Shown here one piece after another: positions 28,678 through 43,019 of a DNA stretch of 64,000 bases (position 1 is the stretch's first letter; each line of letters begins with the position of its first letter). The stretch spans positions 64,592 to 128,591 of the forward strand of contig JAIQGI010000010.1 in the NCBI GenBank assembly GCA_020072565.1, written 5' to 3'. Source of the DNA: Terriglobia bacterium (lineage in GTDB: Bacteria; Acidobacteriota; UBA6911). The position numbers and the translations under genes were made by a program. A model generated the notes under the pieces. The model did no database searches and was not told where the DNA came from. It saw only the letters and a program-made list of their open reading frames with translations.

Positions 28678-29775
28678 ATGAATTCTCGAGAGCGCCTTCT
28701 TGCGGCATTGGATCGGCAGGTGCCGGATCGCCTGCCGGCGACGACGCATCACCTGATGCCGTCGTTCCTGGCGGGTAGGGGCGGCATCAGTGAGCGAGAA
28801 TTCTTCGACCGCTTCGGCCTCGACGCGATCCGTTGGGTTACGGGCCTGCGCCGCGATGCGACGGGATCTGTCAGAGACTGGCGGGTCGAGCGCGAGGACC
28901 TCCCGGCTCCCCACTACCTCACAACGCGTTTCCACATTATCACCCCGCACGGCTCGCTTTCCATGGTGCTTCAGAACGATGGGCGGACAGATTGGGTGAG
29001 GGAGCGCCTGATCAAAAAGAAGAACGACATCGACCTGATCGCACGTTATGCACCCATCCCTCTCTGCGATACCGAGCAGGTGCAACGTGAGGCCGCCGCC
29101 TTCGGCGCGCGCGGCATCGTGCGCGGTGCCGTCCCCGGCTTCCCGATCTACGGCCAGCCGGGCTGCTGGCAGGACGCAGCCGTGCTCTTCGGCATCGAGG
29201 AGCTGATTGTGGAGACATTCGATGATCCCGCGTGGGTAACCGAGTTGCTGGCCATCCTTCAGCACCGCAAGCTCGTCTGGATCGAATCGGCGCTGGGTGC
29301 GCCCTTTGATCTTCTCGAACTCGGCGGCGGCGACGCCTCCTCTACGGTCATCTCCCCGGCGCTATTCGATCGCTTCGTCGCCCCGTTTGACATACCGCTC
29401 ATCGCCGCCGCGCACCAGGCCGGCCTGCGCATCGTGTATCACACATGTGGCGGGATGATGCCCATACTCGAGCGACTCGTCGAAATGGGACCCGACGCGA
29501 TGGAGACGTTCACACCGCGATCGATGGGCGGAGACGCCGATCTGCGCCAAGCGAAGCAGCGCATCGGCCGGCGCGTCTGCATGATCGGCGGCTTCGACCA
29601 GTTCCACCACTTCGTTGCCTGCACACCGGAAGAAACCCGCCGGGCAGTGCGCGCCTGCTTCGAAGAGGCCGGACAGGGCGGCGGTTACATCCTGGCGCCC
29701 TCCGACCACTTCTTCCAGGCCGATGAAGCGCTCCTGCGCGCATATGGCGATGAGGCTGGATCCTGCAGGTATTGA
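28678..29775 (+). CDS. uroporphyrinogen decarboxylase (URO-D)/MtaA-like family protein, second paralog
   Basis: URO-D-family resemblance (MNSRERLLAALDRQVPDRLP...HHLMPSF...). Start placed at ATG 28678 rather than GTG 28648, because 28646-28661 is occupied by the post-stop hairpin motif of the upstream gene. Confidence 0.6.
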   Translation: MNSRERLLAALDRQVPDRLPATTHHLMPSFLAGRGGISEREFFDRFGLDAIRWVTGLRRDATGSVRDWRVEREDLPAPHYLTTRFHIITPHGSLSMVLQNDGRTDWVRERLIKKKNDIDLIARYAPIPLCDTEQVQREAAAFGARGIVRGAVPGFPIYGQPGCWQDAAVLFGIEELIVETFDDPAWVTELLAILQHRKLVWIESALGAPFDLLELGGGDASSTVISPALFDRFVAPFDIPLIAAAHQAGLRIVYHTCGGMMPILERLVEMGPDAMETFTPRSMGGDADLRQAKQRIGRRVCMIGGFDQFHHFVACTPEETRRAVRACFEEAGQGGGYILAPSDHFFQADEALLRAYGDEAGSCRY

Positions 29776-30148
29776 CGGCCTCTACGGACGCGTCTCGCCG
29801 CGGAAAATCATGAGCGAAGTGATTCGCGAGCGACCTGGACCGGCCCGCCCCCGCCGTGCCGCGATGCCAAAGCGCTACTCGCACAGCCTCCTGTGCCCGC
29901 GCTCGGGGAATCCGTGAAATATTTTCACAAAGTCGGCACCCCGCGGCATTGTTTTTGTGTATCATCCCAAGGATGGCGGACACCGGAAGCGCCAGCAGAT
30001 TACGCCGGATCCCTACTTTTTCCGCGCCGCACGTTCGTCGTCAGCGGGATTCGATCCTCGAACGCACTCTAATTAGATTTTTTTAACTTTATGCATCACT
30101 GCACAGGATCCAGGGATTGATGCGGAGGGCGATCCTCAGGAAAACACC

Positions 30149-31264
30149 ATGCCCATAGAAGTAAAAAAAGTCGAAACCAAAAAGGAACTCGCAGAGTTTA
30201 TCGATTTGCCCTGGAAGATTTATAAACAGTATCCCCACTGGGTCCCGCCACTGAAGAATGAAGTTGAAAGATTGGTCACTCCCGGGAAAAACCCGTTCTG
30301 GAACCATGCGGAAAGAGAGCTCTATATCGCCATCAGCGACCGCAATGTCGCCGGAAGAATCGCTGCGATAAGAGATGACAACCACGATAGGGTTCACAAT
30401 GAGAAGGCGGGATTCTTCGGCTTTTTCGAAACTACAGAAAAGTACGATGTAGCCAGAGCTTTGTTTGACGCAGCGGCGGTCTGGTGCAGGGCCAGAGGGT
30501 GTGCCTTTATGCGAGGGCCCGCGAGTCCTAGTTCCAACGACGAATATGGCTTCCTGCTGGAAGGCTTTGACAAAGACCCCGCGCTCATGATGCCGTACAA
30601 TCCCGAATACTATCTTGAGTATTCAGAAAAGTACGGTTTTATAAAGGCAAAAGATCTATTTGCATTCCTGAAAGGGTCTGCGACCTCGATACCTGCGAGG
30701 ATCGAGAAGATCATGGAAAGGGCGAAAAAAAGCTCCCCATTTGTTCTCCGTTCCATTGATCCAAAGAACTTCAAGCGGGATGTAGAGATCATAAAAACAG
30801 TCTATAACCTCGCCTGGGAGAATAACTGGGGTTTTGTTCCCATGACAGACGAGGAGATGGATTTGTCCGCAGCAAGCCTGAGACCGTTTTATGATCCGGA
30901 TTTGATCATAATTGCCGAATTGGATGGCAAGCCTGCCGGAGTCGGGCTCACAGTCCCGAATGCCAACGAAGTCCTAAAAAAGCTTAACGGGAAAATGAAC
31001 CTCTGGGGAATGGTCAAGTTTTTATGGTACAAGCGGAATATCAGAGGCTGCAGAGCCCTTGTCGGCGGCTGTCTGCCCGAATACCGGAAGACGGGTCTCA
31101 TAGCGGAAATATTCCATGAGACAATGGTGAGAGCAAATGGCAGATACGCATGGTGCGAACTTGGCTGGAATCTCGAGGATAACGATCTGATTAATAAGTT
31201 CGACGCGGAAATTGGCGGCGTGCTATATAAGAAGTACAGGCTTTATCAAATGGCACTATCCTGA
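30149..31264 (+). CDS. GNAT-fold acyltransferase-like protein on a low-GC island
   Basis: 371-aa ORF, markedly AT-richer than its flanks (roughly 45% vs 65% GC by eye) with Lys/Glu/Tyr-rich composition. Resembles a family of about 370-aa GNAT-like proteins. Function unassigned. Confidence 0.45.
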   Translation: MPIEVKKVETKKELAEFIDLPWKIYKQYPHWVPPLKNEVERLVTPGKNPFWNHAERELYIAISDRNVAGRIAAIRDDNHDRVHNEKAGFFGFFETTEKYDVARALFDAAAVWCRARGCAFMRGPASPSSNDEYGFLLEGFDKDPALMMPYNPEYYLEYSEKYGFIKAKDLFAFLKGSATSIPARIEKIMERAKKSSPFVLRSIDPKNFKRDVEIIKTVYNLAWENNWGFVPMTDEEMDLSAASLRPFYDPDLIIIAELDGKPAGVGLTVPNANEVLKKLNGKMNLWGMVKFLWYKRNIRGCRALVGGCLPEYRKTGLIAEIFHETMVRANGRYAWCELGWNLEDNDLINKFDAEIGGVLYKKYRLYQMALS

Positions 31265-31299
31265 ATGATCAATGATGAGTAGTGCTACAATAGCCGCCC

Positions 31300-32511
31300 A
31301 TGACCCGATGCCCATCTTGTGCAGCCATCGTAGCGGTCGGCAGGCCAAGCTGCCCGTCGTGCGGGAAGGAGCTTGAGGCGGTCACTTCCGAAGATGCGCT
31401 GCTCGCGCAACTCGCCGAGGAATTTACCTGCGCTGCGCGGGAGGGGCGGAATCCGGGCATCGAGGAATACGCGCTCAGAATGATCGACGGGCGCGGCCGG
31501 GCGCGCATCACGGATTTCGGTCTGGCGGCTTTGGCCAGCCAGCGGCCCGGCGACGTCCTTCGTGCGGGCACTCCGGCCTACATGGCTCCTGAGCAACTTG
31601 CGGGCCAGGAGGCCTCGGTCAAGAGTGACGTCTATGCCCTTGGCCTGGTCCTGTATGAGATCTTTACCGGCCAGCGGGCATTCAAGGCCGACAGTTTCCC
31701 GGAACTTGACCGGCTCCGCGAGCGGAACGTCCTGGCTCGGCCATCAAGCCTGGCCAAGGGCATCCACTCCTCGGTCGAGAGCATCATTCTGCGCTGCCTG
31801 GACAAAGATCCCAATGCAAGGCCATCGGCATTCCAGATCGCCGCGGCGCTCCCAGGACGGGATCCGCTGGCGGAGGCACTGGCAGCCGGTGAAACCCCTT
31901 CCCCCGAGATGGTGGCGGCGTCACCGATGCAAGGAGCCCTGAGGCCGGCCGTGGCGGTGGCTTGCCTGGCGGCACTGGTTCTGTGCCTTCTGCTCATGAT
32001 TCCTTCGTCGCGGGGCATGCTGCACCGTCTCACGCCATTCGAGTTGTCTCCGCAGATCCTCGCCGATCGCGCCGCCACGATCGCGAAGAACCTGGGTTTC
32101 CTCAAACCACCGGCCGACAGCGCATTTGGATTTGGCCGCAATGACGAGTTCCTGGACTATGTCGCGAATCACGATTTCTCGCCCTCCCGGTGGGAGAAGT
32201 TGCGCGATGGCAGGCCGGCGGCGCTGTATTTCTGGTATCGCAAGAGCCCCAGCCCCCTGGTGGCATACAGCCTGGGCCGAATCTCGCCGACTGATCCGCC
32301 GCTCGAAATCCCCAACATGGTAACCATCTTGCTCGACACGCACGCACGCTCGATCGAGTACCAGGCCGTCCCGTCCGAAGTAGAGAATGTCCGCACGCCG
32401 CCGCCAGAGCCCAAGTGGGATGCCCTGTCTGACCGGCCTTCCTCTCTGATTCTGGATGTTCCGCAGACCAGGCTGCATTCAGCTGGCAGAGAGCGGACCG
32501 GCGCCCTATAA
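31300..32511 (+). CDS. degenerate Hanks-type kinase-like membrane protein (N-terminal zinc ribbon, C-lobe-only kinase remnant, TM helix)
   Basis: N-terminal CPSC-x13-CPSC zinc-ribbon. Retains DFG (ITDFGLA), APE-like (TPAYMAPEQ), DVYALGLVLYE and C-lobe motifs. Lacks the Gly-rich loop, VAIK lysine and HRD catalytic loop. One TM helix (VAVACLAALVLCLLLMI) and a roughly 160-aa C-terminal extracytoplasmic region. Confidence 0.6.
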   Translation: MTRCPSCAAIVAVGRPSCPSCGKELEAVTSEDALLAQLAEEFTCAAREGRNPGIEEYALRMIDGRGRARITDFGLAALASQRPGDVLRAGTPAYMAPEQLAGQEASVKSDVYALGLVLYEIFTGQRAFKADSFPELDRLRERNVLARPSSLAKGIHSSVESIILRCLDKDPNARPSAFQIAAALPGRDPLAEALAAGETPSPEMVAASPMQGALRPAVAVACLAALVLCLLLMIPSSRGMLHRLTPFELSPQILADRAATIAKNLGFLKPPADSAFGFGRNDEFLDYVANHDFSPSRWEKLRDGRPAALYFWYRKSPSPLVAYSLGRISPTDPPLEIPNMVTILLDTHARSIEYQAVPSEVENVRTPPPEPKWDALSDRPSSLILDVPQTRLHSAGRERTGAL

Positions 32512-32569
32512 TGGGCCCCGTCCGTATGGCCAACCTTAAACCGGGGACAACCAGTTGCTCCGAGATCGG

Positions 32570-33697
32570 ATGGAAATGATGACCGACGTTTACCAGAAGC
32601 TTGCCGGCCACCTGGACAACCTTCCCGGCGGATTTCCTCCAACGGAAAGCGGCGTGGAATTGCGCATACTGCGCAGACTGTTCACTCCGGAGGAAGCCGA
32701 GCTCGCCGTACATGTAAGCCTGATCCCTGAAGAAGCCGGCGTGATTTCGCGGCGCGCCAGAATCGGACGTGCCGAGGCGGAACAGCGCCTGGCCGGGATG
32801 GCCCGGAAGGGGCTGATCATCGGCCTTTGCCCCGAGGCGAAGCCGGCCCTATACATGGCCGCTCAATTTGTCATCGGCATCTGGGAATTCCACGTGAACA
32901 GCCTCGACCCGGAACTCGTCCGGGAATTCAATGAATACCTCCCGGTGTTGTTCCGTGAAGCCTGGAAGTTCCCGCAATTGCGCACGATCCCGGTAAACCG
33001 CAGCCTGGACCATCAGCTGACCATTCTCCCGTATGAAAGGGCGGAGGAGCTGGTGCGCAGGGCAAGCAAGATTGTGGTGGCTCCCTGCATCTGCAGGCGC
33101 GAGCGGGGCATGGCCGGCGAAGGCTGCAGTAAACTCGGGGAAGCCTGTCTGGTTTTCGGGTTGGGCGCCGACTTGTATCAGCGCAACGGATTGGGAAGGC
33201 CCATAGGACGGGAGGAGGCTCTCGACATCCTCGCCCGCGCGGATGAGGCCGGACTTGTGCTGCAGCCAGGCAATGCTCAGGAGCCTACGAACATCTGCTG
33301 CTGCTGTGGCTGTTGCTGCGGCGTGCTGGGGAGCCTCAAGACTTATCCCCGGCCCGCCGAACTGGTTTCCTCTCCCTTCAGGGCAGTGGCCAGATCCGAG
33401 TCCTGCATCGGTTGCGGCGCCTGCACGACCCGCTGCCAGATGGGCGCTCTGCAGCTGGAAAGCGAAAGGGTGGCGCTGAATTCCGATCGGTGCATCGGTT
33501 GCGGCCTCTGTGTCTCCACCTGTCCCACGGACTCCCTGACGCTGGCGCGGAAACCTGTGTCGGAGCAACCCCGAGTGCCCAAGGATGGAATCCGGTCCCT
33601 GATTCAACTCGGAAAGACGCGAGGCAAGCTCGGTGGTGCGGATCTTGCGTGGATGATGGTCAAGTCCAAAATGGAACGGCTGCTGGCTTCCCGCTAG
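32570..33697 (+). CDS. 4Fe-4S dicluster ferredoxin-domain protein with polycysteine insert
   Basis: Two CxxCxxCxxxCP motifs (CIGCGACTTRCQ; CIGCGLCVSTCP), an extra CICRRERGMAGEGC, and a CCCCGCCCG run. Track start TTG 32555; ATG 32570 chosen (alternatives 32576, 32579). Confidence 0.65.
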   Translation: MEMMTDVYQKLAGHLDNLPGGFPPTESGVELRILRRLFTPEEAELAVHVSLIPEEAGVISRRARIGRAEAEQRLAGMARKGLIIGLCPEAKPALYMAAQFVIGIWEFHVNSLDPELVREFNEYLPVLFREAWKFPQLRTIPVNRSLDHQLTILPYERAEELVRRASKIVVAPCICRRERGMAGEGCSKLGEACLVFGLGADLYQRNGLGRPIGREEALDILARADEAGLVLQPGNAQEPTNICCCCGCCCGVLGSLKTYPRPAELVSSPFRAVARSESCIGCGACTTRCQMGALQLESERVALNSDRCIGCGLCVSTCPTDSLTLARKPVSEQPRVPKDGIRSLIQLGKTRGKLGGADLAWMMVKSKMERLLASR

Positions 33698-39861: not shown

Positions 39862-40379
39862 GATGCTTCTTCACAGAGCTGGTAATGGGACGCCGTGGCA
39901 GCGAATCAGCGCCTATTTCACGCGCACCGAGACCGAGTTCGAGGGCGCAGACTCTCCTGTAACAGAGGCATGGATGCATAAAGCCTGGCGCCCCCTGCTC
40001 ATTCGTACTCCTCACTGATGTTATAGAATGGCTCCAAACAACTGGCGCGATAAATCAGTCTCACCGCACCGAAATGGCCTCGATCCAAGGAAGTAGTTGC
40101 CCGTAAAGGAGGAACCATGAGAGCATGTACCACACGAGCACTCGGGATTGTCGCGATCGCGGTCGGATTTCCGGCCGCCCGGATGTTGTCTATCCCCTGA
40201 ACGCCGTCGAAACGATAGTTTCGCTGGCGGCTTTCGAGCGGCTAGGATGCAGGAACACTCGAAATCCGTATCAATGGATCATTGGAGTCACTTGTTCGCT
40301 GGCCGCAAATCGCAGGCAGAATTGTGCGCTGATCACGTGGAGCGGGAGTTCGGGATTCGTCATTCGAGAGATTAAGGCA

Positions 40380-43019
40380 ATGATCGGCCAAACCATCGGA
40401 CATTACCTTGTCGTCGAGGAACTGGGTGCCGGCGGCATGGGTGCGGTCTACCTGGCGCGGGACACGCGCCTTGAACGCCCGGTGGCACTGAAGATCCTGT
40501 CCAAAGCGCTGCCCGCCAATGACGAAGTCCTTGGGCGATTCAAGCGCGAAGCGAAGGCGGCATCGGCCCTGAACCACCCGAATATCTGCACCGTCTACGA
40601 CATTGGCGAGCATGAAGGACGCCCGTTTATCGTTATGGAACTGCTCGAGGGCGGAACGCTGGCAGGTCCGGAGTTTGCCGGTCCTATGCCGCAAGAGCAG
40701 GTGATCAAGATCGGCATGCAGATTGCCGACGCGCTCGAAGCAGCCCACGCCAAGGGAATAATTCACCGTGACATCAAGCCCGCCAATATTTATGTAACGC
40801 GACGCGGTCAGATAAAACTGCTCGACTTCGGGCTGGTCAAGCTCGCCTCACCTTGCGATCCCGCTGCAGCTTTCGGATCGGCCACCCCCACGGCCGGAGC
40901 ACCGGAAGGAACGCTCACCAGTCCGGGGATGGCCGTCGGCACCGTCGCATACATGTCGCCCGAACAGGCTCGCGGGCTCAACGTGGATCAGCGTACCGAC
41001 CTGTTCTCCGCCGGCGCGGTGCTCTACCAGCTCGCTTCCGGCAAACATCCGTTTGCAGGAAACACTCCGGCAGTCACTTTCGATGCCATACTGAACTGGG
41101 ATCCGGCGGCATTAGAAACACTGAATCCTCAAATTCAGCCTGAGCTGGCGAAGGTTATTTACAAGGCCCTCGAGAAGGATCAGCGAAAGCGCTATCAGAG
41201 CGCTGCTGAGCTTTACCAGGACCTCTTAAGCATAGAGAGACGCTCGGGCGCAACCGCTGCCGGCGACATCTCTTTCCGCCGTACGCAGGTAAACCCGGTA
41301 AATAAGGTGCAGAAGAGACTGCGCTATTTTGCAGCAGGCACTGTCATCATTCTGGTTGCGGTGGTCATGATCTCATTTTTCACACGATGGCTGCCGGATC
41401 GTAGGACCACTGGGCGCGGGGGAAGACTTACGTTGTTCTATTCCTCCCTGGCTCCAACTCGTGACCCAGCAATTTCTCCTGACGGAAAGATGCTGGCTTT
41501 TGCCGCGGAAGAAAATGGCCGCGTGGATTTGTATGTAAGCAGGGTCGCGGGCGGGGCGCGAGTGCGTCTCACGGACGACGGCGCGCAGAAATCAGAACCG
41601 TCATTTTCCCCCGACGGAGAACTTGTCGCGTTCACTTGCCTGCCCAAGGGGAGCGAGGAATCCGAGATTTCCGTGATTCCCACTCTCGGGGGTGCACCGC
41701 GCGTCCTCATTCCCAATGCGAGGCAACCCGCATGGTCCCCAAGCGGCAAAAGGTTGGCTTTTATCCTGATGGCACCCGGCGAACCCACGGCCCTTGCCAC
41801 GGCGGCGCGCGATGGATCGGATATCCACATCATAATGCGAGGGGACGGAGACTACCCATTCCTGAAATCGCCTGCCTGGTCCCCCGACGAGACACAGCTG
41901 GCGGTAGTCCGCAGCCTCGGCGGAGTCTATGGAGAAATCTGGCTTGTGCCTGCCGGCGGCGGGCCCCCCCGACGAATATGCCAAGACCCCGCGGGAGTGA
42001 TCAGCGACGAACCGGTCTTTACATACGACGGTAAAGCCATAGTTCACGAATCCAATCGCGGCGGTGCGACGAATCTCTGGCAGGTGAATCTCGACGGGAG
42101 TTCGCCGGTTCAGCTCACGACGGGAGCGGGGCAGGACCGCTCTCCGACCCTGGCGCGCGATGGTACCATCGCGTTCCTCAATTCACGGACGCGCTCTGCC
42201 ATTTTAGTATGCGCATTGAAAGAGAACGAGCCCAGGGAGTTGTTGACATACTCGGAGATACTGTGGGCTCCTTCATTTTCCCCCGATGGCCTGGAAATCG
42301 CCTTCACTCGCTCCGAGTCGGACGGTTCGTGGCACATCTGGTCCATGCCTGTGTCAGGAGGCACGCCTCGCCAGATTACTTCAGGATCGCTGCCTGAAAT
42401 CTATCCCCGTTACACGGCCGATGGGAGCGCTCTGACCTACAACACCTGGAGTCCGGGACCCGATCGGATCTGGAAAGTCCCGCGCAACGGCGGCCCGTCC
42501 GTTGCCCTGACTCCGACACTGCAGGAAGACGATGCCTATGCGGACTTGTCGCCCGACGGGCAATGGATGGCATTCACCCGCACAGAGCAAAGAACTGCAC
42601 ACGTCTTTGTGACAGCGCTTTCCGGAGGCCCGGCGCGGCGCGTGACGAATTCGCCTTCAGCCGTGCCCCGATGGTCCCCTGACGGCCAACTGATCGCGTT
42701 CAGTCCAGACCGCGGGTATTCTGGTGGTATATTCGTAATTGCTCCGGACGGAACAGGCCAGCGCCGTGTCACCCGGAGCGGCGGCTGGCCGGTGTGGCTA
42801 CCCGACGGCAAATCGATCGGATTCGTGGCAGTGGGCCCTGATGGCAACCAACAGATCCGTTTTGTTCCGGCCGAGGGAGGCGACACGCGCGTCCTTGTTC
42901 CGCTGAAACTGATCGGGACCAATAAGCCATTCGATGTTTCTCGGGATGGGAAGTGGCTTGTGACCACCAACAGCATTGATGTTTCTTCGGAGATCTGGCT
43001 CCTGAGCCGCGAGCAGTGA
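40380..43019 (+). CDS. Ser/Thr protein kinase fused to C-terminal TolB/PD40 beta-propeller repeats
   Basis: All Hanks subdomains ([33 protein letters not shown]), a TM segment ([19 protein letters not shown]), then repeated PD40-like units (SPDG..., WSPDG...). Start moved to ATG 40380. Confidence 0.85.

Follow-up and report, generated by a model that had tools for sequence, protein, structure and literature searches.

How does a gene filed as a protein kinase come to lack the elements with which a kinase binds ATP and transfers phosphate, and is what is left of it still of use to the cell? The gene in question lies in a stretch of 64,000 nucleotides (nt), here called the window, from a Terriglobia bacterium (Acidobacteriota, UBA6911; GenBank assembly GCA_020072565.1, contig JAIQGI010000010.1, positions 64,592 to 128,591 of the forward strand). 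Its open reading frame (ORF), at 31300-32511, encodes a protein 100% identical to NCBI entry MBZ5496384.1, 'MAG: protein kinase [Acidobacteriia/Terriglobia bacterium]', the prefix marking a metagenome-assembled genome (MAG). A first-pass annotation of the sequence had seen in it either a pseudokinase scaffold or decoy or the remnant of a truncated kinase gene. Our results favor a remnant: with a probability of about 0.75, the ORF is what is left of a receptor-type Hanks serine/threonine (Ser/Thr) kinase gene of a Terriglobia lineage after two deletions, and is now a young pseudogene. The derivation by two deletions we regard as very likely, and the lack of function of the remaining stump as likely.

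The ORF comprises the following parts, with amino acids (aa) numbered from its start codon and P0129 denoting the closest full-length relative found.
31300..32511, + strand: the whole ORF, a probable remnant, with an ATG start and 403 codons plus stop (403 aa)
31300..31374, + strand: native N-terminal zinc ribbon MTRCPSC...SCPSCG, aa 1-25 (Pfam Zn_ribbon_3, family hidden Markov model [HMM], P0129 alignment)
31381..31479, + strand: shortened N-terminal helical preamble ALLAQLAEEFTCAAREGRNPGIEEYALR, aa 28-60 (motif shared with P0129, P0133, P0134 and P0140)
31479..31480, + strand: junction of the proposed internal deletion, codon 60 AGA / codon 61 ATG (family HMM and codon comparison with P0129)
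31480..31842, + strand: partial kinase domain, subdomains VII-XI, MIDGRGRARITDFG ... APE ... alpha-F to alpha-I (Pfam, Foldseek)
31513-31521, + strand: DFG, aa 72-74
31585-31593, + strand: APE, aa 96-98
31840..31920, + strand: conserved juxtamembrane motif AAALPGRDPLAEALAAGETPSPEMVAA (family HMM), with substitutions G187R and A192E at near-invariant family columns
31945..32001, + strand: single transmembrane (TM) helix, aa 216-234 (hydropathy; helix at aa 216-233 in the AlphaFold2 [AF2] model)
32002..32433, + strand: N-terminal ~60% of the family periplasmic domain, aa 235-378 (family homology, AF2)
32434..32508, + strand: non-homologous 25-residue tail RPSSLILDVPQTRLHSAGRERTGAL, running into the DNA 5' of the next gene

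Pfam recognizes Zn_ribbon_3 at aa 1-25 (27.3 bits, with a cut-off of 27) and Pkinase at aa 61-181, the latter over profile positions 130-258 of 263 alone (E 2.4e-20), and the PK_Tyr_Ser-Thr profile gives the same partial coverage. Regular-expression scans for G.G..G, [VAI]A[IVL]K and HRD returned zero matches anywhere in the ORF. Compared with Hanks-type bacterial Ser/Thr kinases (PF00069), of which PknB of Mycobacterium tuberculosis is an example, the ORF is homologous from DFG to the end of the domain and has the topology of the receptor kinases, with a cytoplasmic kinase part, one TM helix and an outside domain, but it lacks profile positions 1-129 and with them everything from the Gly-rich loop, VAIK lysine and alpha-C (with its glutamate) through the hinge to alpha-D, alpha-E and the HRD...N loop. 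Foldseek against the PDB gave PknB as the top match (E 6e-9) over ~156 columns of a ~266-residue domain, roughly half a kinase. The segment at aa 216-234 is the sole TM candidate in the ORF (Kyte-Doolittle 2.85) and aligns with the TM helix of the family. Pfam, pattern scans and hydropathy thus bear out the initial description of a zinc-ribbon N terminus, DFG and APE without Gly-loop, VAIK or HRD, a TM helix and an outside segment. With the ATP-binding and catalytic elements missing, the product would also, as first proposed, be incapable of canonical ATP binding or phosphotransfer, and judging from its sequence it could not be an active kinase. Two elements of the description hold only in part. 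'C-lobe only' is right in that nothing but C-lobe material is present, but less than a full C-lobe remains, with subdomains VII-XI left and the C-lobe elements alpha-D, alpha-E and the catalytic loop also gone; and the 'extracytoplasmic tail' is indeed an outside segment but is made up of roughly the N-terminal 60% of a conserved periplasmic domain, to which 25 unrelated residues are attached.

The best 120 database matches to the ORF, at 43-56% identity, define the family from which it comes. In members with complete N termini, a variable linker joins a CxxC...CxxC zinc ribbon to a complete kinase domain, which carries RYRIV.LLG.GGMGEVY, VALKFL and HRDLKPANVM and is succeeded by AAALPGGDPLAAALAAGETPSPEMVAA, a near-invariant motif, then by a TM helix and a conserved domain outside the membrane. 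The full architecture reads zinc ribbon, an optional helical preamble (EEF..G..P.IEEY..RYPE), linker, kinase domain, LPGGDPLAAALAAGETPSPEMVAA, TM helix, a periplasmic domain of ~230 aa that contains 'FWYRQSP', and a polytopic C-terminal membrane domain of ~6-7 TM helices. The juxtamembrane GETPSPEMVAA motif, the TM helix and the FWYR-containing periplasmic domain are all present in the ORF, the last of them incomplete. The family appears to be uncharacterized, and its non-kinase parts have no Pfam model. As a lead only, the preamble is presumably akin to the helical N-terminal preamble of some planctomycete and acidobacterial kinases.

A family HMM built from 45 members with complete N termini aligns to the ORF in two blocks, aa 1-34 with nodes 1-34 and aa 61-378 with nodes 206-528 (410 bits), so that 171 nodes (35-205) have no counterpart and just 26 residues stand between the blocks. 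Because nodes 1-34 align to aa 1-34, the zinc ribbon is no substitute for the N-lobe; a large family of Acidobacteriota receptor kinases has it as its native N terminus. When 1.84 billion representative proteins were searched exhaustively by HMMER with aa 1-62, four proteins, besides matches to the zinc ribbon only, matched the whole 60-residue N terminus: P0129, which is full length (961 aa; ENA ERZ27247591, Logan SRR9651086; locus L082:3354-6239), and P0133, P0134 and P0140, which are contig-truncated fragments. In all four, the zinc ribbon is followed immediately by 'LL.QLAEEFT.A.REG..P.I(E/Q)EY..(R/K)YPE(L/I)...(R/K).LFPT..ALE', with the variants 'IEEYAQRYPE' in P0133, 'IEEYALKYPE' in P0134 and 'VEDYATRFPD' in P0140, and all run on past the point at which the window ORF jumps to MIDG. 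The relatives' preamble continues as ...RYPE(L/I)...RELFP, whereas that of the ORF stops after 'ALR', its '...GIEEYALR' passing straight into MIDGRGRARITDFG. In pairwise BLASTP, aa 1-60 of the ORF correspond to aa 1-60 of P0129 (32/60 identical) and aa 61-376 to aa 255-569 (60% identity, 3 gaps). What is missing from the ORF is aa 61-254 of P0129, 194 codons that encode the remainder of the preamble, a linker of low complexity, all of the N-lobe with the hinge, and then alpha-D, alpha-E and the HRD loop, and the frame is kept across the gap. The initial view that everything N-terminal of DFG had been replaced by a zinc ribbon gives way to this map, in which ribbon and following helix are native and the N-lobe would have been lost by an in-frame internal deletion; that the ORF is the remnant of a kinase gene, as also suggested at first, is upheld by the homology to full-length P0129. 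Microhomology at the AGA/ATG join cannot be inferred from the P0129 gene at this level of divergence (60% identity).

The position of the junction could be questioned if aa 37-60 were a highly diverged and remodelled alpha-E and catalytic loop, with the deletion lying further upstream. About 17 of the 120 BLAST alignments do reach back ungapped to aa 31-37, but a manual count of identities gave only ~6 over 32 positions, the segment is left unaligned by the family HMM, and 53% of its residues agree with the preamble that precedes the kinase domain at the N terminus of P0129, P0133 and P0134. On the strength of the HMM and the preamble homologs we rejected this assignment, the least probable of all the readings considered here.

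The 3' end of the gene also departs from the family. Homology to every relative ends at aa 376-378 (...PEPKWDAL), where family members run on for ~380-390 residues, and P0129 residues ~570-961 are missing, among them the ~6-7 further hydrophobic segments at aa 659-948, none of which occurs in the ORF. The ORF ends instead in 25 residues unlike anything in the family, and then a stop. A targeted tblastn with P0129 aa 541-961 gave nothing beyond aa 376 in any frame and no downstream relic of the 3' part. That search also disposed of a frameshift as the source of the C-terminal tail, for which frame 3 had offered 'FLSDSGCSADQAAF', a vague resemblance to the family's 'LFSEAGLDPANF'. The missing N-lobe, which might have lain elsewhere in the vicinity, was likewise absent: tblastn of the window in any frame, 29776-30148 included, matched only the three other, unrelated kinases. 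Since no relic of the 3' part exists downstream and none of the N-lobe anywhere in the window, the gene appears to have suffered two separate losses, one internal and one 3', the second of which, at ~390 codons, the earlier reading had overlooked. The 3' breakpoint could not be mapped, as the DNA homology of relatives (L002, L003 and L040) starts only at the start codon of the downstream iron-sulfur (Fe-S) protein gene.

In the course that we propose, one event was an in-frame internal deletion of ~194 codons that would have fused the middle of the preamble (…IEEYALR) to beta-strand 8 (MIDGRGRARITDFG); with it went the Gly-rich loop, VAIK lysine and alpha-C, the hinge, and alpha-D, alpha-E and the HRD catalytic loop. 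In the other, the 3' end would have lost ~390 codons by deletion or rearrangement, which left the frame to read through 25 codons of unrelated DNA to a stop.

The junction itself truly exists in the genomes of a near-clonal population, and a single mis-assembly does not explain it, because it recurs on at least 23 independently assembled contigs. The identical 403-aa protein is found on these contigs of 5-157 kb in NCBI, ENA and Logan assemblies from independent samples, different runs and different assemblers (the index lists it in 28 blocks, and 23 contigs were read). The places shown among them all have the same gene neighbors as the window, and one contig differs from the window at 2 positions in 6896 nt. 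The same-strain cluster has four members that are at least 99.7% identical, three of full length with single substitutions (L225P or D188G) and one fragment of 186 aa. An assembly artefact, in the form of a mis-join at the conserved catalytic-loop region where many contigs of the family break, has in its favor that many relatives start at 'MIDG', 'VMIDG' or 'NVMIDG' and that the point is assembly-fragile. It is nevertheless highly improbable given the identical protein and gene context on all these contigs, and the sequence to the left of the junction holds no kinase repeat able to seed a mis-join. The entries concerned, dozens of ~700-aa family members (P0003, P0008, P0012, P0021, P0040 and others), are contig-edge partial genes and not natural short forms, because assemblies break in the conserved HRDLKPxN codons; they could easily pass for natural forms without an N-lobe.

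Outside the same-strain cluster, no match covers the junction, either among the 120 best protein matches or in the exhaustive N-terminal HMMER search. In 80 related loci taken from Joint Genome Institute (JGI) metagenomes, all 79 with any upstream sequence have catalytic-loop residues immediately before the MIDG equivalent, and none has the deletion. The HRD tripeptide is present in 78 of the 79 (two of them in the variant loops HRDFKPGN and HRDLKTAN), the remaining contig-edge locus showing just 'LKPANI', and the Gly-rich loop was found in every locus whose ORF is long enough. The metagenome scan for closer relatives returned none above ~66% identity and none of the same species, and only short fragments came back when aa 185-378, the TM and periplasmic part, served as the sole query. 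An intact, conserved non-kinase family with this architecture, which would have been another account of the ORF, did not appear among the orthologs searched. Short ORFs with only the C-lobe, TM helix and periplasmic part do occur within long contigs (P0247, of 274 aa on a 790-kb contig, and P0194, P0199, P0217 and P0244), and P0247 begins with what looks like the catalytic-loop region translated out of frame. In public assemblies, it seems to be common for copies of the family to be split or frameshifted, as real pseudogenes or as long-read indel errors.

The truncation had originally been linked to the arrival of an adjacent low-GC island, which consists of the following gene.
30149..31264, + strand: low-GC gene of 371 aa (context only, not the cause of the N-lobe loss)
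Its guanine-plus-cytosine (GC) content is 0.48, and 0.57 at third codon positions (GC3), compared with 0.64 and 0.74 for the remnant and a GC of ~0.63 for the neighbors. It has no sequence match in Pfam, NCBIfam, PADLOC or the PDB, but full-length homologs of 33-40% identity occur on plasmids of Actinomycetota, Pseudomonadota and Bacteroidota (in Rubrobacter, Nonomuraea, Streptomyces, Diaphorobacter, Aureispira, Sphingomonas and Roseomonas), annotated as 'hypothetical', 'GNAT family N-acetyltransferase' or 'dATP pyrophosphohydrolase', and the gene was probably acquired horizontally. Its composition, its plasmid homologs in many phyla and its end 35 nt 5' of the ORF would all suit an insertion that removed the 5' half of the kinase. 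Against this, aa 1-60, from the start codon through zinc ribbon and preamble, are intact, homologous to the N termini of full-length relatives and collinear with them, the gap opens 180 nt into the gene and is internal to it, and there is no N-lobe relic 5' of the island at 29776-30148 and no flanking repeat, matches around the island or junction being short and at chance level. We consider truncation by the island very unlikely, if slightly less so than an assembly artefact; at most, its insertion could have displaced the kinase promoter.

The suggested relation to the three intact kinases in the window did not survive alignment either. These kinases match the Pkinase profile over ~1-256, end in PD40 propellers or TPR C termini, and have only 25-36% identity with the stump over the region in common; they are neither its source nor close paralogs. 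For one of them, in the window at 40125-43019 (+), the mechanical ORF start at 40125 lies well upstream of the kinase domain, which begins at aa 95, with a Met at aa 86 (nt 40380), and the ORF is probably extended spuriously at its upstream end, by 85 codons.

On its other side, the ORF is followed at a distance of 43 nt by a gene on the same strand.
32555-33697, + strand: downstream 4Fe-4S protein gene, 380 aa
Because its same-strand neighbors lie only 35 nt upstream and 43 nt downstream, the remnant is probably still transcribed by read-through. The sole sigma-70-like promoter match in 29700-32700 is at 32483-32512 (+) (CTGGCA-18-TATAAT, 10/12), inside the ORF tail and ~40 nt 5' of the Fe-S gene, which fits a tail that reads through into that gene's 5' flank; in promoter and terminator scans, match counts were not above those of shuffled sequence. 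Synteny was sought through the Fe-S gene in 80 GTDB genomes (loci L002-L081). The nearest relatives of the Fe-S protein, at 74-77% identity, are in Terriglobia/Acidobacteriota MAGs (L002, L003 and L040) that share no other neighbors and have no kinase there, and other relatives, at 48-64% identity and in a patchy distribution, are mostly from Desulfobacterales, Syntrophobacterales and Aminicenantes. The stretch around this gene may be a rearrangement-prone region.

Whether the stump has been kept for a purpose is the question on which the remaining doubt centers. Among the columns that at least 95% of 119 relatives conserve, 10% differ in the ORF, compared with a family mean of 1.3% (standard deviation, 2.3%), and only 2 of the 119 are as deviant; substitution of invariant residues is thus ~5-10x the family mean. 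The deviations include D156H and P157S in the 'DP' motif of alpha-H, G187R and A192E in the juxtamembrane motif, and G339N, G349A and L351S in the periplasmic domain, and P0129 retains the family residue at all these positions. One of the two nucleotide differences in the population alters the near-invariant D188; the contigs are near-clonal, and variation (2 differences in 6.9 kb) is too low for a ratio of nonsynonymous to synonymous polymorphism (pN/pS). This pattern fits a short period of relaxed selection following a long history as a working kinase. By a rough estimate, the excess would imply a few per cent of neutral divergence, over which survival of 1.2 kb without a nonsense mutation would have a probability of the order of 0.1-0.3, and the open frame is for that reason no strong evidence for function.

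Several observations nevertheless weigh against a decaying remnant. The frame is open over 403 codons, ~90% of family-invariant residues are still intact, and the internal deletion preserves the frame exactly, as a random one would in one case out of three. In Tajima relative-rate tests, comparison with P0129 gave a mild and inconsistent excess (p 0.03 to 1.0 by outgroup; for example, 38 versus 21 unique changes, p 0.03, with none for other outgroups), and decay, if neutral, would therefore have been brief. An intact syntenic ortholog in a close sister genome was not found, either through the Fe-S gene or through the kinase itself, and the deletions are inferred from a 60%-identical relative, P0129, that sits in a different genomic context.

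The main rival reading is a functional neo-pseudokinase, a membrane-anchored stump kept by selection, which could act as a decoy substrate, docking partner or dominant-negative partner of intact family kinases. The intact ORF, the in-frame deletion, an allele that appears fixed in the sampled population and the retention of most conserved C-lobe and periplasmic residues in confidently modelled regions would all be expected of such a protein. The AF2 model, run with a 74-sequence family alignment, has a mean predicted local distance difference test (pLDDT) score of 76.9 and a predicted TM-score (pTM) of 0.49. Alpha-F to alpha-I and the periplasmic alpha/beta unit are confident (pLDDT ~88-97), the periplasmic part having ~87-97 over most of its length and ~65-68 over aa 361-378, and the preamble forms a helix at aa 31-47. 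Modelling is poor around DFG and the activation segment (aa 66-83), around the junction (aa 49-56) and in the tail (aa 380-403), which is modelled as disordered with pLDDT 33-37. The confidence reflects the family alignment and is no proof of a stump that stays stable once alpha-E and the catalytic loop are gone. Also against selection stand the excess of substitutions at invariant positions, the unnatural 25-residue tail, the loss of alpha-E and the catalytic loop from the C-lobe core, and the confinement of the architecture to this one lineage (120 best protein matches, 80 metagenome loci and the exhaustive N-terminal search). We therefore regard a selected stump as unlikely, although it is the least improbable of the alternatives. 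More specifically, the stump might titrate the family's intact receptor kinases, or their phosphatases, as a decoy or dominant-negative partner, a bitopic protein that would present a cytoplasmic activation segment, unphosphorylatable by itself, with the alpha-G docking face, and half a sensor domain in the periplasm. This is more doubtful still, and the scaffold or decoy role originally suggested found no supporting evidence, with the architecture confined to one near-clonal population. If it were true, it would be a bacterial case of signalling regulation by a truncated paralog.

Comparison with known systems points in the same direction. Relative to the P0129 subfamily, the ORF is collinear in the zinc ribbon, the EEF..G..P.IEEY preamble, DFG to alpha-I, 'LPG.DPLA.ALAAGETPSPEMVAA', the TM helix and the start of the periplasmic domain, at 53-60% identity, but it lacks residues 61-254 and ~570-961, has the unrelated tail of 25 aa and lies in a different genomic neighborhood. 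With the conserved bacterial pseudokinases (CP1, DYD, ActPs1-3, including the MviN/MurJ-linked ones, DLHK and GLW) and the membrane pseudokinase YukC/EssB of the type VIIb secretion system (T7SSb), it shares a kinase origin and the lack of catalytic capacity, and some of those proteins are likewise membrane-anchored. However, the published families CP1, DYD, ActPs1-3, DLHK and GLW have VAIK, HRD or DFG substitutions in an otherwise complete domain, with local indels at most; they retain the whole bilobal fold and are conserved over many strains and taxa (bioRxiv 10.1101/2025.01.12.632604; PMC12599244). In the ORF, half the fold is gone and the architecture is confined to one population, which sets it apart on both counts. 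Like ordinary deletion pseudogenes, it shows domain loss relative to all homologs, lineage restriction, a read-through tail and raised substitution at invariant sites, but it has as yet no frameshift or premature stop in the retained homologous part, and annotation pipelines therefore call it a normal 'protein kinase'. Most likely, it is a recent, lineage-specific remnant, an ordinary decaying gene and not a new kind of pseudokinase. Any product would lack kinase activity and probably any selected function, and it is for these reasons that we take the gene to be a young pseudogene whose frame is so far unbroken.

In conclusion, the locus carries little biological weight by itself, as a further instance of the birth-and-death turnover that the very large kinase repertoires of Acidobacteriota undergo. 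It does call for caution in annotation, since MBZ5496384.1 is filed as a 'protein kinase' without any ATP-binding or catalytic element and would be included in Pfam-based kinome counts. The analysis also outlines an uncharacterized and widespread receptor-kinase architecture, which may merit study by itself.

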